NCBI RefSeq assembly: GCF_051903065.1
Contig: NZ_CP178438.1
Length of the DNA: 64,000 nt
Source of the DNA: Escherichia coli
Lineage (GTDB): Bacteria > Pseudomonadota > Gammaproteobacteria > Enterobacterales > Enterobacteriaceae
Strand: one strand, 5' to 3'
The position numbers and the translations under genes were made by a program. Of the stretch, positions 3,322-57,714 are shown piece by piece. The notes under the pieces were generated by a model, which was given only the letters and a program-made list of their open reading frames with translations, was not told the DNA's origin and did not search any database. Every line of letters starts with the position of its first letter. Positions within the stretch are counted from its first letter, which is position 1.

Positions 3322-4610
3322 GCTTCCGGCTCCCGCTGTTTTTCTCGCAGCACCCGGTCATAGACCTGGGCATAAACTTCATTGAACAGCATTTCAAATC
3401 CTTGCTGTCGGCTGGAGGCCAGCTCATCGTAATAGTTGCTGTACATCTGCCATGCCCAGGCGTCGTCCATTTTCTGGCGCAGTTCATGGCTGCGGCGGTA
3501 TTGCGCAAAGCGGCGCATCAGGTTGCCCGGCGAGAAGGCCTCCAGCATGACACGCAACGCTTCCACAATCGCCGCCCGGTTAGCCTCTTCATGATGCCGG
3601 ATGTTGCGCAGGCTTTCGCCGATGGCCGCGGGTGCTGCGAGATGTACCGGACTTTTACCCTCAGCGAACATGACGTTCAGCGCAGTGGCGTAGTCCATAT
3701 CAAGGCGAAGCGGGTTGTCTTCCAGTGGACGCAGGTGTTTATCCGACAGGCTGTTCTGTTGTTGTTGCAGGCTCAGCAATCCCTTAATGGCAGCCTGCAA
3801 CGCCCGTCCGGCCTCTTCGAGAAACTCATCCGCATCCTGAGAATCGTGCAGCGTCAGCGGGCACTCCATACCGCGCAGCAGCGGGGTCACGGCCAGGTGG
3901 TACTGCGCCATGGCAGAAAATTCATCGTCGTCCTCATAACGGGCATTGCCGGGCGGCAGATCCATAAACGGCGTATTGATCCCGTTTGCACCTGTCAGTT
4001 CGGAGGCGAGGGCGACGGGCCGGGAAACGCGTGGTGCGATCGGATCATCTGCCACCATCAGGCTTTCCGTCTGGAGTGCCTGGAGCGGATCGCTGGAAAA
4101 ACCGTGCGCCACCGTGGGGGCAAGCTGATGCTGGAACGGCATTCCCGGATAGGACGGTTGTCCCTCGGTGGTCAGCAGGGTGTCCGCCAGACTGTCGCGG
4201 TTCATCACAATCGTTTCCGGGGTTGCCATCCGCTCGTCGTAGGTGACAGCCGCGCCGTCATGCAGAAACGCTTTCAACGCCAGTGCACCGAGCTGGATCT
4301 CATCCCCTTGGCGCAGGCGGATGAGCGCACCGGAAGAAACCGGGGCCAGATTAATCATCAGTCCCGGCGTCAGGCACCGCAGGCAATAGGCTCCGTCGTG
4401 CCGGATAACGGTACAGGCACGCGCAGCAATGCTTCCCGCCCGATCCTGTACCTGCCAGTGACATTCCGGCGTATGACCAATATCACCGCCGTTTTCGCTG
4501 AACAGGCATTTTGCGGCGCGTCCGCTTTCCAGTTCGTTGCCATTCATCACCTGTAAAGTCAGTGAGGCCTGGCGGGATTGCTGTTTTTCCTCAGCCATAA
4601 GTGGTTCCAT
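3318..4610 (-). CDS. tagH: T6SS-associated FHA-domain protein (TagH-like)
   Basis: Start moved to the internal ATG at 4610 (MEPLMAEEKQQ...), which follows the tssG stop; FHA-like N-domain (GHTPECHW...IRHDGAYCLRCLTPGLMINL). Confidence 0.75.
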   Translation of the reverse strand: MEPLMAEEKQQSRQASLTLQVMNGNELESGRAAKCLFSENGGDIGHTPECHWQVQDRAGSIAARACTVIRHDGAYCLRCLTPGLMINLAPVSSGALIRLRQGDEIQLGALALKAFLHDGAAVTYDERMATPETIVMNRDSLADTLLTTEGQPSYPGMPFQHQLAPTVAHGFSSDPLQALQTESLMVADDPIAPRVSRPVALASELTGANGINTPFMDLPPGNARYEDDDEFSAMAQYHLAVTPLLRGMECPLTLHDSQDADEFLEEAGRALQAAIKGLLSLQQQQNSLSDKHLRPLEDNPLRLDMDYATALNVMFAEGKSPVHLAAPAAIGESLRNIRHHEEANRAAIVEALRVMLEAFSPGNLMRRFAQYRRSHELRQKMDDAWAWQMYSNYYDELASSRQQGFEMLFNEVYAQVYDRVLREKQREPEA

Positions 4611-4614
4611 AGAA

Positions 4615-5664
4615 TTATTCCCTGATTCGGATGGTGATGGCGGGCGGTACTTTCGGCTGACCAATAAAGCTGGTTCTGCCGAGGCGGGAGCTGGCCGGAT
4701 CGCCAAGGCGCATCCCTTTAGCCTGCTGTGGTGCCAGGCACAGCCGTAAATCCCAGGCAAACTGGTCGCGCAGAATAAAGGAAAGGAACATGGTCAGCGG
4801 CAGGTGATTTTCGCCATCGGGTAAAAATGAGAGATAACGCTCCCGCGACAGGTTGCCAATCTGCAACAGAAATTTTCCGCTGCGATCCGGCACCCGTGCG
4901 CCGAGCGTAAAATTAACGCCAAGTATGGAGCGTCCGGGAATATGTCCAGCCGTTTTTCCTTTCGGATTACGTACACCCAGCCGGTTCTGGTGTGCCGAAT
5001 CAATGGCGACTTTACGTAGTTGCCAGCGTTCAATGGTGACATCCGGCAAATCAAAACAGTGCGACACCAGATTACAGATAACCTCCGGCGCGCGGCCTGG
5101 TGTTGCCAGAATTCCGGCGTAAGCCAGCATTTTGCTGTGGTTAATGGCAAGCCTGTCACGCACGCTCTGATTACCCAGCCCGACCAGCGCGTACATGCGC
5201 TGTGAAAAGGTGTCAGTGCCGCCATTACGAAAGCAGATGTAGTAGCGGTATTTGCGCCAGGCATGATAGGCAAACTGTGTCCAGCGGTGGCTGAACAGAT
5301 CGAGAAATTCTTTAAGGCCGTCTTCGTTCTGTGCGGACTCCTGCGCCATCTGATCCAGATAATAGCCCGGTAGCGGCGACTGGCTGCCGGAAAAGCCCAG
5401 GAAACGGGTTTGCAGTACATACTGTCCGTTCTGGCTACGGGAAAGCACACTCAGGTCCGTACCCGGAAAACCGATATTGGCGTCAGAGCTGAAACGCACG
5501 ATCTCTTGGGCTGGCTCGGTACGCAGGGAAATATCCTGGCCCGGAGCGCCATACCGACGGTACAGCGCCTCCATCAGCACATAGAAATTGCAGTTGCGCA
5601 CATCCGCCGATAACGGCGGTTTTACCGCTATATAAGGGCGTGCTGACCCATTTTCTCCTGCCAT
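4615..5664 (-). CDS. tssG: T6SS baseplate protein TssG
   Basis: 349-aa ORF, TssG/ImpH-like; overlaps the tssF 3' end as is typical. Confidence 0.85.
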   Translation of the reverse strand: MAGENGSARPYIAVKPPLSADVRNCNFYVLMEALYRRYGAPGQDISLRTEPAQEIVRFSSDANIGFPGTDLSVLSRSQNGQYVLQTRFLGFSGSQSPLPGYYLDQMAQESAQNEDGLKEFLDLFSHRWTQFAYHAWRKYRYYICFRNGGTDTFSQRMYALVGLGNQSVRDRLAINHSKMLAYAGILATPGRAPEVICNLVSHCFDLPDVTIERWQLRKVAIDSAHQNRLGVRNPKGKTAGHIPGRSILGVNFTLGARVPDRSGKFLLQIGNLSRERYLSFLPDGENHLPLTMFLSFILRDQFAWDLRLCLAPQQAKGMRLGDPASSRLGRTSFIGQPKVPPAITIRIRE

Positions 5665-7487
5665 TCCCAGGCCTCCTGACTTTCCGTGTTGATGATTTTC
5701 AGACAGTGGTACGAATTGATGCTGGCGTAGAGAGCAAAAAAGTGCGAGAGCACTGTACCAAGAAGATAAATTTCACCTTCGCAGATAAATGGATCGGGAC
5801 GTATCCACAACGTGGTCGCCAGCCCGCGAACCGGCACGCCTTTAAACAACCTGTCAACAGGTTTGGTTTCGAGTTTTTCTATGGCATCCAGTTTCTGGCG
5901 CGACAGTCTGGCCCGCTGCGGATGGTGAGCGCCTGGCAGGTCGAAGGTCCGCAGGATCTGGATCAGTGTCTCCCTGTCCAGCAGGGAGAGGTAGTTCAGG
6001 TTCATCGCGGAAATCAGCGACCAGTGCATGTCGCCGTCCGTGACTGGCCAGAGCGGCTGCGTTGGGCGTGTGACATTATGAAATGAGGCCACCGCCGGGT
6101 TTTTGTTGACGGCCACGCAGATATCGCCGATATGCAGCCGAGCAGGGATCATACGGTTGGTACAGATTAATGACGTGGTGATCACATCATCATTAAACCG
6201 TGAGCTGTCCGGAATGCTGCCGTCCGCATGGACAAAGGCGATACTATGTTCAAGCCCGCGGTGAAACAGGGATGTTTTAGTCCGGTGATGCCAGTAAACG
6301 ACTTCCCGCTGGCGGCTGTACTCCATCTGGTGCTGGAAGCTTTCAAATTCGGGCCAGACACGCGCCTGGCTGCCAGGGTTGGATTCAGTACCTGAAACTT
6401 TGACTTTGCTGGTGACTGTGCTTATCTGAAAAATGTCATAAGCGTCGGGATGCCGGTGGCTGGCGCGCAGCGGGTATTCCGCTATCCGTCCATCAGGCCT
6501 GACGGGTTCCGCATAATGCGTAAACAGGTTAATGGCTGGCGTACAGTGCAGACGCAGTGAGTCCTGGCGTAGCTTGATGTCGGCAGGTAACGGGCGGTTA
6601 AAGTGCAGGCGCAGCGTAAACGCGCTGACCGGGAAATCGTCCGGTAGTGGCGCAACATCGCGCAGATGGAAAAAAAAGAAGGCTTCGGGATAGCAGAAAT
6701 ACTCCTGGAGTACCCGATAGCCGCTGTGGACATTTTTCGGCCACGGTAGCAGGGCGTCCTGGTTTTCAAATCCGGCGGCCTCCAGCCACAGATCCGGCAG
6801 CGGCAGGCGGTACTCTCCGGCAATCAGTTCCGCATCCATCAGGCATTCGCAAAACCACAGATAAAGCTGGTGTCGGGTATAATCGTCTTCATTACCCAGC
6901 CAGAACGTTATTTTGTTCAGGTCAAGCATGGCGGGGGAGACATTGTTATCTGCGGTAAAACTGATATCTATGATGCCTTCTTTCAGGCTGCTGGCGTTGC
7001 GGGTGTCGAGAATGCGCAGTGGTTGCAGCCAGATATCGCGCGCCAGCGTGAAATGACAGGCTACGGAAGAAACGATTTTATCATGATTGTCAGACAGCAC
7101 CTTCTGAGCAGCCAGGGCGGACTTTTCTGAGCGGCTTCTGATCAGTTCATTACGACAGACCTGAACAGGGACTTTTAACTGATCGGTTTTGGGTTCATAG
7201 GCAATAACCGTCATGGCCGGAACCGGGCGTAAATAGTTTGCCCACAGCATACGGATTAGCCCATGAGTGAATTCGGGGAATTCGTCCTCAAGTTTCTGGC
7301 GCAGGCTACCGGACATAAAGGCAAAGGCTTCCATCAGTCGCTCCACGTCCGGATCACCCTCTTTCTCGGCCAGAAAGTGGGCCAGATGTGGTTTTTCCTG
7401 CGCCAGCAGTTTGCCAAGCTGGCGAAGATAATCCAGCTCTTCGCGGTAGTAACGTTCTTCAAAAGCCACAGAGATCACTCCACACAA
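5628..7487 (-). CDS. tssF: T6SS baseplate protein TssF
   Basis: 619-aa ORF; ...EERYYREELDYLRQLGKLLAQEKPHLAHFL is the TssF N-terminal signature. The track start is a TTG, so the exact start (7487 vs a few codons inside) is uncertain. Confidence 0.85.
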   Translation of the reverse strand: MCGVISVAFEERYYREELDYLRQLGKLLAQEKPHLAHFLAEKEGDPDVERLMEAFAFMSGSLRQKLEDEFPEFTHGLIRMLWANYLRPVPAMTVIAYEPKTDQLKVPVQVCRNELIRSRSEKSALAAQKVLSDNHDKIVSSVACHFTLARDIWLQPLRILDTRNASSLKEGIIDISFTADNNVSPAMLDLNKITFWLGNEDDYTRHQLYLWFCECLMDAELIAGEYRLPLPDLWLEAAGFENQDALLPWPKNVHSGYRVLQEYFCYPEAFFFFHLRDVAPLPDDFPVSAFTLRLHFNRPLPADIKLRQDSLRLHCTPAINLFTHYAEPVRPDGRIAEYPLRASHRHPDAYDIFQISTVTSKVKVSGTESNPGSQARVWPEFESFQHQMEYSRQREVVYWHHRTKTSLFHRGLEHSIAFVHADGSIPDSSRFNDDVITTSLICTNRMIPARLHIGDICVAVNKNPAVASFHNVTRPTQPLWPVTDGDMHWSLISAMNLNYLSLLDRETLIQILRTFDLPGAHHPQRARLSRQKLDAIEKLETKPVDRLFKGVPVRGLATTLWIRPDPFICEGEIYLLGTVLSHFFALYASINSYHCLKIINTESQEAWEWQEKMGQHALI

Positions 7488-28941: not shown

Positions 28942-29652
28942 TGCCAGCTGTGGTTGCACAACTTCGTGGCTTAACGGCTTGCTGACCACGTAACGACCAT
29001 TGACCACAGAAACGGTCGGTGGCTTACGGGTTTGCTCAAAGTAGTCGTAACCCGGCTTCAGTTGCTCCCAGAAGTCCTTAAAGTTGGAATATTTGTGGCG
29101 CTTCATATTAGCGTCGGTCATGCGGAACGGGTAAATGCTCACTTGCACGCTCGGCTGACCAAATACCAGTGCGCCAGTAACGAACTGGAAAATCTCGTCA
29201 ATGCCCTGATTGGTCATCGCGTAGCAGCCGATGGAAACACAATCGCCGTGGATCATCAGGTATTTCCCTTCATAACCATGCGCACGGTCATAGGCATTGG
29301 GGAAACCAATATTAATCGCTTTGTAGTAACGGCTGTCTGGTTTTAACTGATTACGCTGGACGCTATAAAACCCTTCCGGGCTTTTGAAATCGCCCTGACG
29401 CTGTTTTGGCCCTAAGCCGCCGGAATATTTACAGATTTTATAGCTGTCGAGCAGTTGATATTGCTCGCCCATTTTGACGTAGAGATCGAGCGTACGTTCT
29501 TCCTTGAAGATCTGGATGTAGACAGGGGATCCCATCAACTGCTGCTTATACTCTTTGCTCACTGGCGTGGTCGAGCTACTGCTGCCCAGCAAACCGGCAA
29601 ACGAAACGCACGGGATCAACAACATCGCAAGAATTAATGCGATTTTACGCAT
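28912..29652 (-). CDS. yafK: L,D-transpeptidase-like periplasmic protein YafK
   Basis: 246 aa with signal peptide, YkuD-type. Confidence 0.9.
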
Positions 29653-29807: not shown

Positions 29808-30086
29808 TTACCCAAAGAGCGCCGCGTGAGTTCCAGTTCTCTCAAATCGTAAAAGTTTATCGGTAAGTTTGTAAATCAGGAGCCAGTCCGGTTCGACATG
29901 AGCATCGCGATAACCTTTCCATGAACCTTGCAGCGGGTGGTCTTTATAAACAGCTGGAATCGGTAAAGTATTATTGATAAGAAGCGTCATAAGATATTTC
30001 AATTTATTCATATCCTTATGACGCTTTTGTGCAAGTTTTACATCCTTTGAAAATTGTCCCGAGTATTCAATATCCCTTTGAATCAT
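29808..30086 (-). CDS. yafQ: Type II toxin YafQ (RelE-like mRNA interferase)
   Basis: 92 aa, matches YafQ. Confidence 0.95.
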   Translation of the reverse strand: MIQRDIEYSGQFSKDVKLAQKRHKDMNKLKYLMTLLINNTLPIPAVYKDHPLQGSWKGYRDAHVEPDWLLIYKLTDKLLRFERTGTHAALFG

Positions 30087-30088
30087 AT

Positions 30089-30349
30089 TTAAATTCCTAA
30101 TTTATCAAATAAATCATCGGCGTCTTTGGCCTTATGAACATCAACGCCAGCTTCGCTGTTTTTGATTGATTGAATGGTTAATTGATTAGGCTCGCGTAAA
30201 TCAAACGGCAATGCCTTTTCACGCGCGACCTTTGTGAGGGTTATGCGAACCAGGTCAGAGATGGTCAGCCCCATCCCGGCCAGTACGTCCGCCGCCTGAT
30301 TCTTCAGATCTTCATCGATTCGGGCGCGAACAAACGCGTTAGCAGCCAT
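30089..30349 (-). CDS. dinJ: Antitoxin DinJ
   Basis: 86 aa, matches DinJ; 2-bp spacing to yafQ. Confidence 0.95.
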   Translation of the reverse strand: MAANAFVRARIDEDLKNQAADVLAGMGLTISDLVRITLTKVAREKALPFDLREPNQLTIQSIKNSEAGVDVHKAKDADDLFDKLGI

Positions 30350-30365
30350 TGGGGTATCTCCTGTG

Positions 30366-30381
30366 CTGTATATTTATTCAG
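30366..30381. promoter_or_regulatory. LexA box upstream of dinJ
   Basis: CTGTATATTTATTCAG (CTGT-N8-CAG) 17 bp upstream of the dinJ start. Confidence 0.7.
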
Positions 30382-30558
30382 CTTGAATTGTAGCTCAAAT
30401 GAGCAACAGCGACAATCTATGAGTAATTTAATAAACGGATGTTTTTACATAATTAACTGAAATATATTTATTAATTTTATAATAATGGTTTATTAAGTTT
30501 GTTCAGGTACGGGCCGGGATACACTGTAACATCAATGCATGACCAGCCATTATTCAAT

Positions 30559-34582: not shown

Positions 34583-34620
34583 ATGCTGAATCTTTACGCA
34601 TTTCTCAAACCCTGAAATCA

Positions 34621-34636
34621 CTGTATACTTTACCAG
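34621..34636. promoter_or_regulatory. LexA box upstream of dinB
   Basis: CTGTATACTTTACCAG 17 bp upstream of the dinB ATG. Confidence 0.8.
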
Positions 34637-34652
34637 TGTTGAGAGGTGAGCA

Positions 34653-50273: not shown

Positions 50274-50948
50274 TTAGGCTTTGATTTTGTATCTTCTTGG
50301 TTTTCCTGAGAAAATCACTGTACCAATTATAGAGCAATTACCGTTGATCTTAATGTAAGGCTCAGGCCAGTTTGGGTTTAACGCTTTGAGATAACGCTGT
50401 GTCCCATCTTCTATCAACCTTTTGAAGGTGGTTTCGCCTGTATCGTGCATCAATGCAATAACGTCGTCACCGTGGCAGGCAGGTACTTCAGGATCGACAA
50501 AAATCATGTCTCCCGGGCGGTACTCATCAATCATTGAATCACCTATCACCCGCAAGATATAAGTCATTTCCCCACAGGGTACAGGGCAGGGATACGTTTC
50601 TGCTGTGCTCAAATCAACCTCAGAATATCCAACTTCTTTCCATGCTCCGGCCTGTACCCATGATATGACAGGGACTAATGTGATTTGTTTATTAGTGATT
50701 GAAACATCAGGTTTTTTTGTGATGTTCGTTGTCTGGTGTTCTTGATCGAGCCATCCGACAGGCAGGTCGAAACATTTTTCGATGTGTCGTGCCATGCTGT
50801 CACCGATATTTTTAGTAGCACCATCTCCCATAAACCTGCTGGTCTGGGTTGGCTCGCGATCAATCATAGTGGCAAAGGAAGAATTCCCGCCAACACCATC
50901 TCTCAGTTTTCTGGCGTTAGACCGCCGGATGTCATGGATTGTTTTCAT
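50274..50948 (-). CDS. cI: Phage CI-type repressor (HTH plus S24 LexA-like peptidase domain)
   Basis: 224 aa; C-terminal S24 motifs (GDSM...K); ATG has no upstream RBS, consistent with a leaderless transcript. Confidence 0.85.
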   Translation of the reverse strand: MKTIHDIRRSNARKLRDGVGGNSSFATMIDREPTQTSRFMGDGATKNIGDSMARHIEKCFDLPVGWLDQEHQTTNITKKPDVSITNKQITLVPVISWVQAGAWKEVGYSEVDLSTAETYPCPVPCGEMTYILRVIGDSMIDEYRPGDMIFVDPEVPACHGDDVIALMHDTGETTFKRLIEDGTQRYLKALNPNWPEPYIKINGNCSIIGTVIFSGKPRRYKIKA

Positions 50949-50962
50949 AACGAAATTAAAAC

Positions 50963-51033
50963 CCTTGTACCGTTAAGGTACAAGTATCTTGAAGGTTCAT
51001 TTCAATCATGTAATATGTACACCGGAGGTACAT
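50963..51033. promoter_or_regulatory. OR region: two palindromic operators and the rightward promoter
   Basis: CTTGTACC-gttaa-GGTACAAG (50963-50983) and ATGTAC-accggag-GTACAT (51015-51033); TTGAAG-16-TAATAT promoter at 50987-51014. Confidence 0.65.
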
Positions 51034-51038
51034 ATTGT

Positions 51039-51239
51039 ATGAAAGCGTATTGGGACTCTTTAACCAAAGAACAGCAGGGCGAGTTGGCCGGAAAAGTTGG
51101 CTCAACACCTGGCTACTTACGGCTGGTTTTCAATGGCTATAAAAAAGCCAGTTTTGTGCTGGCTAAAAAACTTGAGCAATGCACGTCAGGTGCAATTACG
51201 AAATCTGACTTAAGACCGGATATCTATCCGAAAGATTAG
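51039..51239 (+). CDS. cro: Cro-like HTH repressor
   Basis: 66 aa from ATG 51039 with GGAGG RBS (MKAYWDSLTKEQQGELAGKVGSTPGYL...). Confidence 0.75.
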   Translation: MKAYWDSLTKEQQGELAGKVGSTPGYLRLVFNGYKKASFVLAKKLEQCTSGAITKSDLRPDIYPKD

Positions 51240-51270
51240 CAGAACACTTTCAATTTTTAACCACAGAACG

Positions 51271-51834
51271 ATGAGGCTAACCGTGGGTAAGCATCACTGG
51301 AAAATAGAAAAACAGCCTGAGTGGTACGTGAAAGCTGTCAGAAAAACTATCGCGGCGTTGCCGGGTGGTTACGCTGAAGCGGCTGACTGGCTCGATGTAA
51401 CAGAAAACGCTTTATTCAACCGCCTTCGTGCAGATGGCGATCAGATTTTCCCGCTGGGATGGGCAATGGTTTTACAGCGTGCTGGTGGCACTCACTTCAT
51501 TGCTGATGCTGTGGCGCAGTCTGCAAATGGCGTCTTTGTGTCTCTTCCTGACGTCGAGGATGTGGACAACGCCGATATCAACCAACGCCTGCTGGAAGTC
51601 ATTGAACAGATCGGCAGTTATTCAAAACAGATTCGTTCAGCAATTGAAGACGGTGTAGTGGAACCGCATGAGAAGACAGCAATTAACGATGAGCTGTACC
51701 TCTCAATTTCGAAGCTGCAGGAGCATGCAGCACTGGTCTACAAAATCTTTTGCGTTTCAGAAAGTAGTGACGCCCGCGAGTGTGCAGCTCCGGGCGCCGT
51801 GGCGTGTCGTGACTGTGGAGAAACTAACGCATGA
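51271..51834 (+). CDS. Phage CII/YdaT-like regulatory protein
   Basis: 187-aa ORF directly after cro. Confidence 0.5.
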
Positions 51835-52189
51835 ACAGTTTAACAACACACTACCGTCGCTCGCAACTGATTGCGCTTCCTGTACCGGGTGGAAAAGCGA
51901 AGGTGGAGTATTGCTATGCAGTAAATGTACCAGGTGACAGGGAAATTGTAACCCACAGCTTTGCAGAGTGGGCTGTGGGTGATTTCAACCGGCAGAAGGA
52001 GACAGTCCTTTGCGACAAGTTAACCGCTGGTTCAAAGATCACTACGGAGTGCCCGTCAGAGTCATTCGTTGGGAGCCGGAAACACAACGGGTTATCTACC
52101 TCCGTGAAGGCTATGAGCATGAGTGCTTCAGCCCGCTCGAACAGTTTCGTCGTAAATTCAGGGAAATAGAGGTCGGTCATGAGCACTAA
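51831..52189 (+). pseudogene. Phage gene with an apparent single-base frameshift in a T-run
   Basis: Frame 0 ([10 protein letters not shown]...QKETVL) is protein-like up to about 52010; frame 2 from 52010 ([59 protein letters not shown]) is protein-like and ends abutting the next gene. Confidence 0.5.
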
Positions 52190-53120
52190 ATTAACCGGCT
52201 ATGTATGGGATGGTTGCGCTGCGTCAGGCATGAAATTATCCAGCGTGGCAATTATGGCCCGCCTGGCTGATTTCAGTAATGACGAAGGTGTGTGCTGGCC
52301 ATCAATTGAAACCATTGCCCGTCAGATTGGCGCGGGGATGAGTACCGTCAGAACGGCTATCGCACGGCTGGAAGCAGAAGGCTGGTTAACGCGTAAGGCG
52401 CGTCGCCAGGGTAACCGCAATGCGTCGAATGTTTATCAGCTTAACGTTGCGAAGCTTCAGGCAGCGGCATTTTCTCAACTGTCAGATTCTGACCCGTCAA
52501 AATCTGACGCATCAAAATCTGACCCGTCAAAATTTGATGCGTCGAAATCTGGCAAAAAAGCGGGTTTTCACCCGTCAGAATCTGGCGGGGATCCGTCAGT
52601 AAAATCAAAACATGATCCGTCAGATAAAAAAACTTCTCGTCCGGACGCTTCGCAACCGGACACGCAGACGGCTGAACAGGAGTTTTTAACTCGCCATCCT
52701 GATGCGGTTGTATTCAGCCCTAAAAAGCGCCAGTGGGGAACGCAGGATGATTTGACCTGCGCACAGTGGCTCTGGAAAAAAATCATCGCCCTGTACGAGC
52801 TGGCCGCCGAATGTGACGGCGAGGTGGTTCGTCCCAAAGAACCGAACTGGACAGCCTGGGCAAACGAAATTCGCCTGATGTGTGTGCAGGATGGTCGTAC
52901 TCACAAACAAATCTGCGAGATGTACAGCCGCGTCAGCCGCGATCCGTTCTGGTGCCGTAACGTGCTCAGCCCGTCGAAGCTGCGGGAAAAATGGGATGAG
53001 CTTTCCCTGCGCTTATCGCCGTCCATCAGCACATACACAGAAAAACGCGAAGACCCGTATTTCAAATCCAGTTACGACAACGTGGACTACAGCCAGATCC
53101 CGGCAGGATTCAGGGGGTGA
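52179..53120 (+). CDS. Phage replication initiation protein (lambda O-like) with internal iterons
   Basis: 313 aa; N-terminal winged-helix region, repeat-encoded Ser/Asp/Lys-rich linker. Confidence 0.7.
   Translation: MSTKLTGYVWDGCAASGMKLSSVAIMARLADFSNDEGVCWPSIETIARQIGAGMSTVRTAIARLEAEGWLTRKARRQGNRNASNVYQLNVAKLQAAAFSQLSDSDPSKSDASKSDPSKFDASKSGKKAGFHPSESGGDPSVKSKHDPSDKKTSRPDASQPDTQTAEQEFLTRHPDAVVFSPKKRQWGTQDDLTCAQWLWKKIIALYELAAECDGEVVRPKEPNWTAWANEIRLMCVQDGRTHKQICEMYSRVSRDPFWCRNVLSPSKLREKWDELSLRLSPSISTYTEKREDPYFKSSYDNVDYSQIPAGFRG
52485..52625 (+). repeat. Iteron array, candidate phage origin of replication
   Basis: Tandem imperfect repeats (GACCCGTCAAAATCTGAC / GCATCAAAATCTGAC / CCGTCAAAATTTGATGCGTCGAAATCTGGC / CCGTCAGAATCTGGC / TCCGTCAG). 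Confidence 0.65.
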
Positions 53121-53611
53121 GCATGAGTCTTTTGAATGAAGTTCAGAAATTCATTGAAGCCCATCCGGGCTGTACTTCCGGAGACATTGCGGATGCTTTT
53201 GCAGGTTACTCACGGCAGCGCGTTCTGCAGTCAGCAAGCAAGTTACGTCAGAGTGGGCGTGTGGCTCACCGTTGTGAAGGGGATACACGCAGACATTTCC
53301 CGCGCCTGACTGAGAGAGCGCAGGAGCCGGAACCACAACCAGTTCGTGAAACCAGACCTGTGCGCAATTTCTATGTCGGCACTAACGATCCACGGGTGAT
53401 TTTGTGCCTGACCCGCCAGGCTGAAGAACTGGAGTCCAGGGGCCTATACCGTCGTGCTGCAACGGTGTGGATGGCGGCATTCCGTGAAAGCCACTCCCAG
53501 CCAGAACGAAACAATTTTCTGGCGCGTCGTGAGCAGTGCTTACAGAAAAGCAGCAAGCGCGCTGCATCGGGTGAAGAGTGGTATCTGTCAGGGAATTACG
53601 TGGGGGCGTAA
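53117..53611 (+). CDS. Phage hypothetical protein (possible HTH)
   Basis: 164-aa ORF overlapping the stop of the O-like gene. Confidence 0.5.
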   Translation: MSMSLLNEVQKFIEAHPGCTSGDIADAFAGYSRQRVLQSASKLRQSGRVAHRCEGDTRRHFPRLTERAQEPEPQPVRETRPVRNFYVGTNDPRVILCLTRQAEELESRGLYRRAATVWMAAFRESHSQPERNNFLARREQCLQKSSKRAASGEEWYLSGNYVGA

Positions 53612-53937
53612 TGACGACGTTAACTCAATGCCAGCAGCAGGTGCTGGATATGCTGATTTCTTATCAGAAAGAACGTGGCTTCCCGCCAACCAATCAGGAG
53701 GTGGCTACCATGCTGGGATACCGTTCAGTGAATGCAGCGGTGGAGCATCTTCGCGCACTGGAGAAAAAAGGCGTCATCACGATAAAGCGTGGCGTGGCAC
53801 GGGGGATAACGCTTCATACCGCGGTGAAGGACGACGACAGCGAGGCGGTCGGGATTATCCGCTCACTGCTTGCCGGTGAGGAAAACGCCAGGCTGCGTGC
53901 AGCCCACTGGTTACATGAGAGGGGCCTGAAAGTATGA
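53611..53937 (+). CDS. LexA N-terminal DNA-binding-domain-like protein (no peptidase domain)
   Basis: Start at ATG 53611 (MTTLTQCQQQVLDMLISYQKERGFPPTNQEVATMLGYRSVNAAVEHLRALEKKGVI), resembling the LexA winged-helix domain. Confidence 0.6.
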   Translation: MTTLTQCQQQVLDMLISYQKERGFPPTNQEVATMLGYRSVNAAVEHLRALEKKGVITIKRGVARGITLHTAVKDDDSEAVGIIRSLLAGEENARLRAAHWLHERGLKV

Positions 53938-54323
53938 AGCTGATCCTGCCTTTTCCGCCCAGCGTGAACACGTACTGGCGACACCCCAACAAAGGGGCGT
54001 TTGCTGGTAAGAGCCTGATAAGCGCGGCGGGGCGCAAATTCCAGAGCGCGGCGTGTGCAGCAATAGTTGAGCAGTTACGTCGTCTGCCAAAACCAACGTC
54101 GGCACCTGCTTCAGTGGAGATCGTGTTGTTTCCTCCGGATAACCGGATCCGCGATCTGGACAACTATAACAAGGCGCTGTTTGACGCCCTGACCCACGCG
54201 GGGGTGTGGGAAGACGACAGCCAGGTGAAAAGAATGCTGGTGGAGTGGGGGCCGGTTATCCCGGAAGGGAAGGTCGAGATCACTATCAGTAAGTACGAGA
54301 AAACGGCGGGTGCAGCCGCCTGA
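53934..54323 (+). CDS. rusA: Holliday-junction resolvase RusA-like
   Basis: 129 aa with conserved RDLDN motif. Confidence 0.85.
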   Translation: MKLILPFPPSVNTYWRHPNKGAFAGKSLISAAGRKFQSAACAAIVEQLRRLPKPTSAPASVEIVLFPPDNRIRDLDNYNKALFDALTHAGVWEDDSQVKRMLVEWGPVIPEGKVEITISKYEKTAGAAA

Positions 54324-54342
54324 TTAAGAGGAGAAACGAAGT

Positions 54343-55140
54343 ATGAATAATCTGATGGTCATTGATGGTATTGAAGTTCGTCGTGATGCTTATGGGCGTT
54401 ACAGCCTGAACGATCTGCACAGGGCTGCCGGTTCTCAGGATAAGCATAAGCCTGCATTCTGGCTCCGCAATGAGCAAACCGAACGTTTAATACGCGAGTT
54501 GCAGATTTGCAACTCGGTCAATATAGAGCCAGTTAACGTTAGTCGTGGCGGAAATAACCAGGGGACGTATGTCTGCAAAGAACTGGTGTATGCCTATGCA
54601 ATGTGGATCAGCCCGTCATTCCATCTGAAGGTGATCCGTACTTTCGATATGGTAACCAGCGCACCGGAAAAATTATACGGGCAGGCTGCTGACAAGATGC
54701 AGGCTGGCGTGATTCTGCTGGACTTTATGCGCCGGGAGTTAAACCTGTCTAACTCATCTGTGCTTGGGGCCTGTCAGAAACTCCAGGAGGCTGTTGGCTT
54801 ACCGAATCTGGCACCACGCTATGCCATTGATGCTCCTGCTGACGCGCCTGATGGCTCAAGTCGCCCGACACTGTCACTGAGTGCACTGCTGAAACAGTAT
54901 GGTATCTGCCTGACGGCTAATCAGGCATATCACCAGATGGCGAAGCTGGGGATCGTGGAACAACGCGAACGATACAGCCGTACCGCGATTAACAACATCA
55001 AAAAATTCTGGTCGCTGACAGCGAAAGGCTGCATGTTCGGCAAGAACATCACCAGTCCCGCAAATCCGCGCGAGACGCAGCCGCATTTCTTCGAATCCCG
55101 ATTCCCTGAGCTGTTAAAGCTGCTCGATACCGTTCATTGA
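54343..55140 (+). CDS. KilA-N domain protein (antirepressor-like)
   Basis: 265-aa ORF; KilA-N-type N-terminus. Confidence 0.6.
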   Translation: MNNLMVIDGIEVRRDAYGRYSLNDLHRAAGSQDKHKPAFWLRNEQTERLIRELQICNSVNIEPVNVSRGGNNQGTYVCKELVYAYAMWISPSFHLKVIRTFDMVTSAPEKLYGQAADKMQAGVILLDFMRRELNLSNSSVLGACQKLQEAVGLPNLAPRYAIDAPADAPDGSSRPTLSLSALLKQYGICLTANQAYHQMAKLGIVEQRERYSRTAINNIKKFWSLTAKGCMFGKNITSPANPRETQPHFFESRFPELLKLLDTVH

Positions 55141-55141
55141 G

Positions 55142-56137
55142 GTGACCGTGAGAGCACTACTGACCCCTGAAATAGCCCCGCGTATGGGGATCGTATTGTT
55201 CAGACCCGGTTCAGAGCTGATGCCCCTGTTTATGCAGGGGCGTGTCCTGCTGGAGCCTGAGCCGGAACGTTATTCATCTTTCGCCAGTGGTGCCGTTCCC
55301 GCGGCATCACAACCGCTGGCGGATGATCCTGCCGTTCGGGCCGTGTTCTGCAATGAGGCAGTGATCCGTCGTACTGGTGGCGTGGAATGTCTTGAAAGCT
55401 GGTTACTTCGTGAAAAGGGCTGTCAGTGGCCTCATTCCGACTGGCACAGCGAGAACATGACCACAATGCGACACGCGCCGGGCGCGATCCGTCTGTGCTG
55501 GCACTGCGATAACCAGCTGCGCGATCAGTTCACGGAACGGTTGGAATCAATGGCAACGGATAACTGTGCCCGCTGGGTGTTGTCTGTTGTGCGTCGGGAT
55601 CTCGGTTTTGATGACAGTCACGTTGTGACAATGCCGGAACTGTGCTGGTGGCTGATTCGTAATGACCTGGCGGATGCCTTACCGGAAAGTGCAGCCCGTA
55701 AGGCACTGAGATTACCGAAGCCTGTTGTGCCGTCTGTCACCCGGGAAAGTGACCTTGTTCCTTCGGTTCCTGCCACCAGCATTATCCAGGATAAAGCGAA
55801 AAAGGTGCTGGCGCTGAAAGTGGATCCAGAGTCGCCGGAGTCTTTTATGTTACGCCCAAAACGTCGCCGCTGGGTTAATGAAAAGTACACGCGCTGGGTT
55901 AAGACACAGCCGTGTGCATGTTGTGGAAAGCCTGCTGATGATCCCCACCACCTGATAGGTCACGGTCAGGGTGGAATGGGTACAAAAGCGCATGACCTCT
56001 TTGTGTTGCCTTTGTGCAGAAAGCATCACGACGAGCTGCATGCGGATACCGTGGCATTTGAAGAGATGTATGGCTCCCAGTTGGAGCTGATATTTCGTTT
56101 TATTGATCGTGCGCTGGCAATTGGCGTGCTGGCCTGA
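55142..56137 (+). CDS. Phage DUF968-like protein
   Basis: 331 aa; Cys/His-rich C-terminus (CACCGKPADDPHHLIGH...CRKHHDELH). Confidence 0.6.
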   Translation: MTVRALLTPEIAPRMGIVLFRPGSELMPLFMQGRVLLEPEPERYSSFASGAVPAASQPLADDPAVRAVFCNEAVIRRTGGVECLESWLLREKGCQWPHSDWHSENMTTMRHAPGAIRLCWHCDNQLRDQFTERLESMATDNCARWVLSVVRRDLGFDDSHVVTMPELCWWLIRNDLADALPESAARKALRLPKPVVPSVTRESDLVPSVPATSIIQDKAKKVLALKVDPESPESFMLRPKRRRWVNEKYTRWVKTQPCACCGKPADDPHHLIGHGQGGMGTKAHDLFVLPLCRKHHDELHADTVAFEEMYGSQLELIFRFIDRALAIGVLA

Positions 56138-56154
56138 TTTGGTGGAGAAAGTTG

Positions 56155-56502
56155 ATGCGTGATATGTATGAAGTATTGGACCGCTGGGGAGCATGGGCTG
56201 CAGCAGAAAATAGTGGTGTGGACTGGCAGCCGATAGCGGCTGGTTTCAAGGGACTTTTACCACACGGTAAAAAGTCACGTCTCCAGTGTGATGATGATGA
56301 AGGCATCATGATAGATAGTTGTGTGGCTAGGTTGCGTAAATATAAGCCGGAAGAGTATGAGCTGATAATTGCTCACTTTGTTATCGGTATCTCATTACGC
56401 ACTATTGCGAAGAAGAGAAAATGCTCTGATGGGACTATAAGAAAAAAGTTGCAAGCTGCATTGGGATTTATTGATGCAGTTATATATATAATACATGGGT
56501 AA
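56155..56502 (+). CDS. Late-gene antiterminator Q (QuuD-like)
   Basis: MRDMYEVLDRWGAWAAAENSGVDWQPIAAGFKGL... resembles DLP12 QuuD; GGAG RBS before ATG 56155. Confidence 0.8.
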   Translation: MRDMYEVLDRWGAWAAAENSGVDWQPIAAGFKGLLPHGKKSRLQCDDDEGIMIDSCVARLRKYKPEEYELIIAHFVIGISLRTIAKKRKCSDGTIRKKLQAALGFIDAVIYIIHG

Positions 56503-56526
56503 TTTATTAGACGGCCATATTGGCCG

Positions 56527-57714
56527 TCAGCTAAATAAATATGTAATAGCATAAGGCGTAAGTAAAAAGTAGAACCTAAATGTAAGATATAAGCCACATA
56601 AAACTATAATTCCTAATGAGGCAAAAACAACTTTCTGAACAAGCAATCTTGTGGTTAAACTATCAAATGTATCCTTTATATCTTCGTAAATAGCCTTGAA
56701 GTTATATTCTGCTTGTTGTTTTTTATGATTTAACTCATCATTTATTGCTGTTAAAGTTTGCCATTGATTAAATAGAACAAATAGAATCATAATAGTGAAG
56801 AACAATGCACCCAACACTACAGCTGTATTTATTAATGCTTGACTATCCCAACCATTAGCCTGCTTCATTTGAGTCGCAACGATAATTGTTGCGACGGGGA
56901 TACCTAATATCTGATTTTGTATGTCACTGAATACTTTATGTATTTTTCCCATCTCTTCTATTTTGGCTACTCGTAACTGATCCAGTATTTTCTCGTAAGA
57001 AAAACCAGAAACGAATACTTTGTATCCTTTTTGATAACTTTCATAAAGTTGTCCTAAATCCCTTAACATGAAGGAAAAAGAGGTTTCTTTAGTTTTAGAT
57101 TCACATGATGATTTTATGCTACTTGCTAAAATAGTAAGTTTTTGATCTTTATGCGTATCTTCTGCAAAGTTTGCGATCAAATTATGAATCAGATCTCCAT
57201 TAACATTCATAAGATCATCGCTAGAATAATTTACTGGAATTTTTAGTACGTTGGATTCGACGAATACCAATTCAAAATTTGTTTCATCTAAATAAGCAGA
57301 ACAATCTTTGAATAAAGTAATTAAGCTCAAAACATCTCTGTACTTGGATATAATAGCAGGCGACTTTTTATCCCTGTTGTGATAATTAAGTTCGATTATA
57401 AAGAAGTTACTGGCTTCCTTTATCCTATTTTTAGGATTTTTTAAATACTCATTAAAAGAGAAATGTAGCTGCCCCAATCGTAATTTGGGGGGGGTTATAT
57501 GTAAGGTTATAGTTTGGCCTAACTCAATGTTGCCAGATTCAAGGGTGATGCCAAAATCATGGGGATTCTCTGTGATATCGTTGATGATGTCACAGAGCTC
57601 CTCGTTTGAAAGAATGAGTGATGCTTCAGATAGGGTACCTGCAAATGTAGCGGCCTTGTAAATAGTCACTAAGTCTTTGAAGGTTCTCTGATTGTTACTG
57701 CTCATCCTCTTCAC
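56527..57714 (-). CDS. Hypothetical protein with two C-terminal transmembrane helices (cassette gene 2)
   Basis: 395 aa; hydrophobic segments ALINTAVVLGALFFTIMILFVLF and VVFASLGIIVLCGLYLTFRFYFLL; 20-bp overlap with the upstream gene; AT-rich. Confidence 0.6.
   Translation of the reverse strand: MKRMSSNNQRTFKDLVTIYKAATFAGTLSEASLILSNEELCDIINDITENPHDFGITLESGNIELGQTITLHITPPKLRLGQLHFSFNEYLKNPKNRIKEASNFFIIELNYHNRDKKSPAIISKYRDVLSLITLFKDCSAYLDETNFELVFVESNVLKIPVNYSSDDLMNVNGDLIHNLIANFAEDTHKDQKLTILASSIKSSCESKTKETSFSFMLRDLGQLYESYQKGYKVFVSGFSYEKILDQLRVAKIEEMGKIHKVFSDIQNQILGIPVATIIVATQMKQANGWDSQALINTAVVLGALFFTIMILFVLFNQWQTLTAINDELNHKKQQAEYNFKAIYEDIKDTFDSLTTRLLVQKVVFASLGIIVLCGLYLTFRFYFLLTPYAITYLFS

Follow-up and report, generated by a model that had tools for sequence, protein, structure and literature searches.

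The 64,000-nucleotide (nt) window analysed here (assembly GCF_051903065.1, contig NZ_CP178438.1) is a stretch of the Escherichia coli chromosome that is 97-99% identical to strain A2 around dinB, proA and tRNA-Thr, and it carries an SfV/SfII/SfIV-like prophage located at tRNA-Thr, which extends from ~44994 to past the window end. Within this prophage lies the gene with which we are concerned, which encodes a stand-alone LexA-type DNA-binding protein of 108 amino acids (aa) that we name LexDB. The gene is tightly embedded between its neighbours: the first base of its ATG at 53611 is also the last base of the TAA that ends a PerC-like gene (gcgTAATGacg), and its TGA stop (53935-53937) overlaps the ATG of rusA at 53934 by 4 nt (ATGA). 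An alternative GTG start at 53578, which the list of open reading frames (ORFs) offers as a 119-aa product, was rejected. Since the homologues of LexDB and LexA itself begin at the MTTLT/MKALT position, 108 aa is the correct length.

Profile searches and structural modelling identify LexDB as a LexA-type protein. The Pfam family LexA_DNA_bind (PF01726, gathering cut-off 23.7 bits) matches residues 1-65 along profile positions 1-65 of 65 with an E-value of 2.9e-19 and 69 bits, BLASTP aligns the protein to residues 1-86 of E. coli LexA at 43% identity, and the protein belongs to PHROG 362, a 'transcriptional repressor' group (E 1.4e-59). Modelled by AlphaFold from 14 family members, at a predicted local distance difference test score (pLDDT) of 83, the protein forms a winged helix composed of helices 6-22, 28-35 and 40-52 and strands 56-58 and 66-68. 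The top match of this model in the PDB is the E. coli LexA-DNA complex 3JSO (root-mean-square deviation, rmsd, 0.9 Å over 68 residues, 50% identity), and superposition on the LexA-DNA complexes 3JSO and 3JSP gives values of 0.9-1.0 Å over 67-69 residues at ~50% identity; searched against the PDB, the LexDB family profile matches LexA repressors only. The original prediction, which had read the ORF at 53611-53937 as a protein resembling only the N-terminal winged helix of LexA, is borne out by these data: the ORF is present, the similarity to LexA in profile searches is far above chance, and Pfam finds no Peptidase_S24 (PF00717) domain with its Ser-Lys dyad in LexDB, whose chain stops at residue 108. 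We read LexDB as a paralogue, carried by phages, of the N-terminal domain of LexA, whose winged helix and most of whose recognition helix it retains.

The likeness extends to the residues that read DNA. The base contacts listed for LexA in PMC3091678 are Ser39, Asn41, Ala42, Glu44 and Glu45, and LexDB, with S39, N41, A42, V44 and E45, has 4/5 of these. Comparison of the recognition helix of LexDB with that of E. coli LexA (RSVNAAVEHLRAL vs RSPNAAEEHLKAL) likewise displays the retained S39, N41, A42 and E45. Members of the LexDB family as distant as 39% identity all have S39, and almost all have N41. Recognition of the CTGT-N8-ACAG SOS box by LexDB is hinted at by the four kept contacts, with valine in place of E44.

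Where LexA continues into its linker and S24 domain, the model of LexDB instead has a family-specific helical hairpin, preceded by a low-confidence linker at residues 71-75. Hairpin residues A97 and L101 are invariant among relatives down to 39% identity, and neither structure nor profile searches of the PDB found a solved homologue of this element, which may have a role in dimerisation. The sequence 'LLAGE' at LexDB residues 86-90 aligns with the cleavage region 'VAAGE' (Ala84-Gly85) of LexA. We considered whether this might be a cleavage-site remnant, cleaved in trans, and rejected it as a selected feature: the motif is not conserved, its Gly being Asn in some close homologues and the whole motif being gone in distant members, and the segment is predicted to be helical. 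When compared with the NCBIfam equivalog lexA (TIGR00498), LexDB scores 70.8 bits, below the cut-off of 110.95, and is matched over positions 1-91 of 203 only. LexDB is thus a member of the PF01726 domain family but no LexA repressor proper, because it has neither the S24 domain nor a cleavage site, scores under the curated cut-off and, in this window, has no autoregulatory box.

LexDB is widespread and already annotated in E. coli prophages. The gene, at 95% identity or more, is found in 2232/5426 complete E. coli genomes (41%), and LexDB is carried by 63 phage records, including SfV, SfII, SfIV, Stx2a, Stx2c, cdtI phage, mEp460 and 2H10. Its counterparts SfII_44, SfIVp43 and apparently (by gene order) SfV orf42 have long been annotated; other phage records label it 'SOS-response repressor and protease LexA' or 'RecA-mediated autopeptidases', which is misleading because the protease half is absent. 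Literature searches found no experimental or functional study of the family, the 'LexA family transcriptional regulator' of PMC8044961 being cI-type repressors and not LexDB proteins, and the PADLOC defence-system library gave no meaningful match.

Table 1. Features of LexDB and of the early-right region of the prophage. Residue numbers refer to LexDB.
Feature	Coordinates	Strand	Evidence or remarks
LexDB gene (108-aa stand-alone LexA-type DNA-binding protein)	53611..53937	+	ORF, Pfam, PHROG
LexA-type winged helix-turn-helix (residues 1-65)	53611..53805	+	AlphaFold model, PDB match
Recognition helix (residues 40-52)	53728..53766	+	LexDB VNAAVEHLRALEK vs LexA PNAAEEHLKALAR
C-terminal helical hairpin (residues 75-103)	53833..53919	+	predicted helices 75-88 and 93-103, pLDDT ~88-90
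cI-type prophage repressor	50274..50948	-	PF00717 (Peptidase_S24) E 1.5e-26; QAG, GDSM, FKRL motifs
cro-like gene			between cI-type repressor and cII; early-right region
cII	51271..51834		early-right region
Replication protein gene, internal iteron-like repeats	52179..53120		early-right region
PerC-family gene	53117..53611	+	PF06069 E 6.8e-9
rusA Holliday-junction resolvase	53934..54323	+	PF05866 E 6.1e-15
KilA-N domain gene	54343..55140	+	PF04383 E 5.7e-27; 19 nt past rusA
DUF968 / HNH-like gene	55142..56137	+	PF06147 E 1.6e-80
Q antiterminator, final gene of early-right block	56152..56502	+	PF06530 E 1.2e-44

The genes for PerC, LexDB, RusA, KilA-N, DUF968 and Q overlap or lie at most ~20 nt apart (Table 1), which suggests that they form a single delayed-early (nin) transcription unit with translational coupling; an inverted repeat at 56502-56536 directly follows Q. 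As originally predicted, a KilA-N gene lies two genes downstream of LexDB, after rusA. The best match of its product is PHROG 129, 'transcriptional regulator' (E 2.4e-128), and its matches to anti-repressor PHROGs are weak (1e-7 to 5e-6). At the head of the region, the cI-type repressor carries an Ala-Gly site, and its counterpart in strain A2 is annotated as ymfK / LexA family protein. Judged by these motifs, this repressor, with its own S24 self-cleavage domain, is the SOS-sensing element of the prophage.

Two further features of the region deserve mention. Tandem inverted repeats within the replication gene at 52481-52543 (GTCAGATTCTGAC / GTCAAAATCTGAC / GACGCATCAAAATCTGAC) fall where the replication protein has a repetitive stretch, DPSKSDASKS, and probably represent a replication origin of the iteron type within the gene for the initiator. 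Just past Q, a 395-aa gene on the minus strand (56527-57714) has no Pfam match and weakly resembles NCBIfam DS1_2_antiphage (E 1.6e-19; its 70 bits fall far short of the cut-off, 315). Possibly this is a defence gene that occupies a variable slot; strain A2 has other genes there, one for a hypothetical protein and, behind it, one for a DNA methyltransferase.

We then scanned the window for SOS boxes with a matrix derived from 20 training sites, published E. coli boxes that themselves score 12-26 bits. Over the whole window this matrix identified only the host dinJ and dinB boxes, which serve as positive controls: a dinJ-yafQ-like box at 30364-30383, which was outside the training set, scores 21.2 bits, and the dinB box at 34619-34638 scores 16.2 bits. 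The former (TGCTGTATATTTATTCAGCT) lies 15 nt upstream of an 86-aa ORF on the minus strand (30089-30349; MAANAFVRARIDEDLK...) that is followed by a 92-aa ORF on the same strand (29808-30086), and we take these two ORFs to be the dinJ-yafQ antitoxin-toxin pair. Around LexDB (53000-54400) the best score is 5.2 bits, with no box upstream of LexDB or in the rusA-KilA-N gap, and the window contains 19 matches to CTGT-N8-ACAG with at most one mismatch vs 18.7 expected. Promoter-like matches between 50000 and 59000 are no commoner than in shuffled sequence, with none convincing before KilA-N. The proposal that LexDB ties expression of the KilA-N gene to the SOS response, to be checked by a search for LexA boxes upstream of that gene, thus finds no support in this window, where the gap between rusA and KilA-N is 19 nt long and contains no SOS box, and where LexDB has no S24 domain.

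To place LexDB among its relatives, an exhaustive search was made of 1.8 billion representative proteins, which yielded 4563 matches, mostly true LexA proteins. The LexDB family itself consists of proteins of ~105-135 aa (P0172 was called at 165 aa) that have the same C-terminal hairpin, are 39-52% identical to LexDB and span several enterobacterial genera. Length is kept from 100% down to 39% identity; this, together with the presence of the gene in 2232/5426 genomes, argues for selection on LexDB. Apart from one fusion with DUF968 (P0158, see below), the longer LexA-domain proteins are true LexA, tandem proteins with two LexA domains, or unrelated fusions. The tandem proteins (P0132, P0148, P0152, P0186 and P0211), which have two successive LexA_DNA_bind domains as single-chain pseudo-dimers, in some cases with extra domains (PTPS in P0155), apparently represent a separate, undescribed architecture.

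Comparison of gene neighbourhoods in ten divergent LexDB contexts revealed RusA after LexDB in 8/10, often with the same 4-nt overlap, DUF968 in 8/8 of those with the position visible, a Q-type antiterminator in most, and KilA-N or pRha/ANT in 4/10. In some of these loci rusA is set apart from LexDB by a 66-67-aa ORF or by an inserted reverse-strand gene, and in two it is missing; the upstream neighbours vary and include PerC, Dam, a C5 methylase, a replication protein and small ORFs. The conserved neighbours of LexDB in divergent relatives are therefore RusA and DUF968, not KilA-N. We also examined a close set of 80 viral contigs with a 99-100% identical LexDB gene, whose loci are not independent observations: rusA abuts LexDB in 79/79, KilA-N follows in ~75/80, and a ~650-nt dam gene lies between PerC and LexDB in 56/75 loci with both detected. 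A single contig encodes a 240-aa protein (P0158; L013 6001-6723) in which a LexA-type domain is fused to the C-terminal half of DUF968; it probably arose by a deletion in which the hairpin, rusA and the N-terminus of DUF968 were lost.

In one divergent subfamily (P0137, P0172, P0207, P0220 and the fusion P0158, at loci L007, L010, L013, L095 and L097), canonical SOS boxes that score 17-27 bits precede the LexDB-containing operon in 5/5 loci. The layout in this subfamily runs from the SOS box through a recA fragment or dinI, which lies between box and LexDB in 4/5 loci, to a 75-82-aa ORF, LexDB, in some cases a 66-67-aa ORF, then RusA, DUF968 and Q, and in L007 and L097 the SOS box overlaps or abuts a recognisable -35/-10 pair. 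To look for operators more generally, we enumerated all palindromes with 5-nt arms and spacers of 0-14 nt in the ten divergent loci and compared them with shuffles. The most widely shared palindrome was ACTGT-N8-ACAGT, the SOS box, in 6/10 loci vs 2-4 in shuffles (in L002 the spacer is rich in GC and sits within a methylase gene, and the match there is probably due to chance), and the enumeration gave no candidate for a private operator other than the SOS box in these loci. Inverted repeats in the window between 50900 and 56600 were likewise considered as a private operator and set aside, being accounted for by cI/cro operators, origin iterons, a terminator and coding sequence. In the divergent subfamily, a conserved non-coding stretch, CTGGCCTGAACAACCAG..ACCTGCTGCGCC, is found just upstream of LexDB (L007 ~4960-5000, L010 ~4955-4998, L013 ~5960-6000), where it forms a small hairpin or CTG-N11-CAG palindrome.

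Among the close loci, 47/80 have, within 5 kb, an SOS box that scores 17 bits or more, in three main positions. In at least 23/80 viral loci the box (TACTGTAAAAATAAACAGTG) coincides with the first codons (ATGAAAAATACTGTAAAAATAAACAGTG...) of a DNA methyltransferase downstream of Q; this box, at L001 24638-24657 and L010 7739-7758, is conserved between distant phages, and the module is absent from the window. In 26/80 a perfect box, TACTGTTTTTA(T/C)ATACAGTA, lies inside the coding region of the SfII-type cI (L011, SfII itself, 29167-29186); the cI of the window is of a different type, without that internal box. The third position, in 5/80, is a longer rusA-KilA-N spacer, in an arrangement as in SfIV. 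This SfIV-type arrangement occurs in 187/5426 E. coli genomes, with a 163-nt spacer and a box, TACTGTATTTATGAACAGTA, ~100 nt upstream of a KilA-N variant that is 66% identical to the window protein, its N-terminal half having diverged and its C-terminal half being nearly identical. On the sequence of these spacers, then, a LexA link to the KilA-N slot is real in some relatives, where an SOS box of the ordinary kind provides it; the window has no such link, and the circuit originally envisaged is not supported here. A 22-nt hairpin (CGAGTTGCA...TGCAACTCG) at 54495-54516, inside the KilA-N coding region of the window, is the 3' end of rusA in SfIV (L098 ~3505-3526), just ahead of the SOS-box spacer, and looks like a mosaic recombination junction.

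Taking these data together, we tentatively propose that LexDB is a LexA surrogate immune to cleavage, which binds SOS-box-like operators in lytic growth, a reading we favour while holding it with somewhat less than even confidence. As an apparent delayed-early product of the rightward block, with its translation coupled, it seems, to that of the PerC-like gene and of rusA, LexDB would not be made until the prophage repressor had lost its activity, and, because the S24 domain is absent, RecA* could not inactivate it. It would bind SOS-box-like (CTGT-containing) operators as a small oligomer and, host LexA having been destroyed on induction, would re-impose repression at SOS-box promoters. The targets would be host SOS genes and, in relatives, phage SOS-box promoters, namely those of the LexDB operon itself (divergent subfamily), of the SfIV-type KilA-N gene and of the post-Q methyltransferase; here, since no phage SOS box is visible in the window, they would be the SOS boxes of the host or of other prophages. 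The expected outcome would be negative feedback on phage SOS-box promoters and damped SOS functions of the host or of rival prophages. The sequence data show what domain LexDB has, that the protease is missing, how the genes are arranged and conserved in order, and where SOS boxes lie; the DNA specificity, oligomeric state, repression and biological pay-off of LexDB are inferred.

Several observations weigh against this proposal. Position 44 is never Glu in the LexDB family (it is V, A, F, T, L or Y), and given this loss the specificity of LexDB may differ from that of LexA. Deprived of the C-terminal dimer, the N-terminal domain of LexA has only weak affinity for DNA. Dimerisation of LexDB through the hairpin is a conjecture: when two copies of the protein were joined by a 30-residue Gly/Ser linker and modelled with a paired alignment, AlphaFold returned a predicted template modelling score (pTM) of 0.33 and a pLDDT of 66. 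The visible prophage contains no SOS box, the best score in it being 12.8 bits, within the range of shuffles. In relatives, the SOS boxes are fully explained by host LexA alone, and the counts given above cover LexDB-bearing loci. Finally, the one truncated phage LexA homologue that has been characterised, gp6 of the Bacillus tectivirus GIL01, has diverged to another palindrome and activates the late promoter P3 (PMC6182141).

This precedent, a truncated LexA homologue with a different palindrome (PMC6182141), is the starting point for another reading that we consider rather unlikely, though the main competitor, namely that LexDB is a captured LexA domain with its own operator, a dedicated regulator which activates or represses a phage promoter to time expression. 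The systematic replacement of the contact residue E44 would fit such a change, and the predicted hairpin, as a new dimerisation element, could alter the spacing of half-sites. Against this, no recurrent palindrome besides the SOS box was found across the ten divergent loci, the conserved block is nearly devoid of intergenic space, the inverted repeats of 50900-56600 are otherwise explained (cI/cro operators, iterons, a terminator and coding conservation), late genes depend on the Q antiterminator so that no late activator is needed, and a tblastn search of 50,697 phage records at E <= 1e-3 revealed no connection to GIL01. The tight association with RusA and DUF968 would be accounted for if LexDB were not a transcription factor at all but a DNA-binding accessory of the RusA resolvase or the DUF968 HNH-like protein: the LexDB-rusA overlap of 4 nt, abutment in 79/79 close loci, the presence of RusA in 8/10 divergent contexts, that of DUF968 in 8/8 visible contexts while upstream neighbours vary, and P0158, which joins a LexA domain to the C-terminal half of DUF968, all speak in its favour. 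We nevertheless think it improbable, as the synteny may just mirror the fixed gene order of this nin region, rusA is separated from LexDB in some loci and missing in two, the fusion is present on one contig and looks like a deletion, and the LexA winged helix is a sequence-specific duplex binder.

An equally poor prospect, in our estimation, is control by LexDB of the adjacent KilA-N 'antirepressor', which would couple it to the SOS response as the original prediction had it. A KilA-N or pRha/ANT gene does follow rusA in 4/10 divergent contexts and in ~75/80 near-identical loci, and SfIV-type variants have a canonical SOS box ~100 nt upstream of the KilA-N variant. In the window, however, the 19-nt rusA-KilA-N gap reaches an SOS score of no more than 5.2 bits and has no above-chance promoter, the gene order points to co-transcription of LexDB and KilA-N, and LexDB is unable to sense RecA* because it lacks the S24 domain. 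The known antirepressor circuits, as summarised in PMC8044961, are ones in which host LexA acts on an SOS box before the antirepressor gene. The prophage studied here needs no antirepressor to answer the SOS response, because its cI-type repressor carries its own S24 domain and self-cleaves; in addition, KilA-N is missing from 6/10 divergent contexts and the protein is itself only a putative antirepressor, its best PHROG being 'transcriptional regulator'. That LexDB might be a decaying, functionless remnant of a LexA- or cI-type repressor gene is suggested by the loss of half of the ancestral protein and by the many truncated or frameshifted copies in databases, yet relatives in several enterobacterial genera keep both the length and the hairpin at identities from 100% down to 39%, the start and stop codons remain coupled, and 41% of complete E. 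coli genomes carry the gene; we regard this explanation as very improbable indeed.

If the uncleavable-surrogate proposal is right and SOS boxes are indeed bound by LexDB, the phage would be making a LexA of its own that is beyond the reach of RecA, and the strength and duration of the SOS response in induced lysogens could be shaped by it, with possible effects on Shiga-toxin phage induction, antibiotic SOS mutagenesis and competition between co-resident prophages. In its broadest form, in which a mimic carried by prophages of ~40% of E. coli genomes (Stx2a/Stx2c, cdtI and Shigella serotype-converting prophages among them) re-silences SOS-box promoters, we consider the idea doubtful; were it true, host SOS functions, the SOS-controlled antirepressors of rival prophages and SfIV KilA-N-type promoters would be re-silenced, and the induced phage would gain control over the host DNA-damage response and co-resident prophages. 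If LexDB has instead acquired a private operator, this would add, after GIL01 gp6, another independent instance of a phage re-using the LexA domain for its own regulation.

Of known systems, E. coli LexA (PDB 3JSO, 1LEA) shares with LexDB the winged helix-turn-helix fold. It differs in possessing the S24 peptidase/dimerisation domain and a selected Ala-Gly site, both of which LexDB lacks, having a hairpin instead, and LexDB further departs from LexA in its place within a phage operon, in the replacement of E44 and in having no autoregulatory SOS box in the window; unlike the window, the divergent subfamily does have an SOS box, of the kind used in LexA autoregulation, upstream of the LexDB operon. 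BlaI/MecI-type repressors, in which a winged helix is followed by C-terminal helices, weakly resemble LexDB in Foldseek (2g9w, 1sd7), but full-length matches are poor (rmsd 5-8 Å, E ~1e-2) and there is no sequence relationship, so that the resemblance is an analogy only.

LexA-controlled antirepressor switches, for which PMC8044961 cites coliphage 186 Tum, N15 AntC and Salmonella Gifsy, offer a further comparison. Like them, SfIV-type relatives place an SOS box before the KilA-N gene in the same slot, and the SOS-box promoters of the divergent subfamily precede an operon ending with Q. Those switches employ host LexA and a non-cleavable repressor; the window prophage, by contrast, has a repressor with S24 and no box near KilA-N. 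A small LexA-like protein such as LexDB is not known to belong to any described circuit.

The closest parallel is provided by gp6 of GIL01, which, like LexDB, is a phage-encoded LexA DNA-binding domain without S24. It is 44% identical to the N-terminal domain of its host's LexA and binds GaCACAC-GTGTGaC at -43.5 (PMC6182141). The two proteins differ at their C-termini, gp6 having a 14-residue tail that forms the wing and LexDB a ~35-residue helical hairpin; gp6 also reads its palindrome via K38 and activates, and its host phylum and phage type differ from those of LexDB. In the tblastn search mentioned above, LexDB matched enterobacterial and unclassified metagenome-derived phages, with no tectivirus among the organisms named. 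By analogy, LexDB would work most nearly in the manner of gp6 and other such truncated LexA homologues of phages, while belonging to an independent enterobacterial lambdoid lineage and equipped with a distinct C-terminal module.

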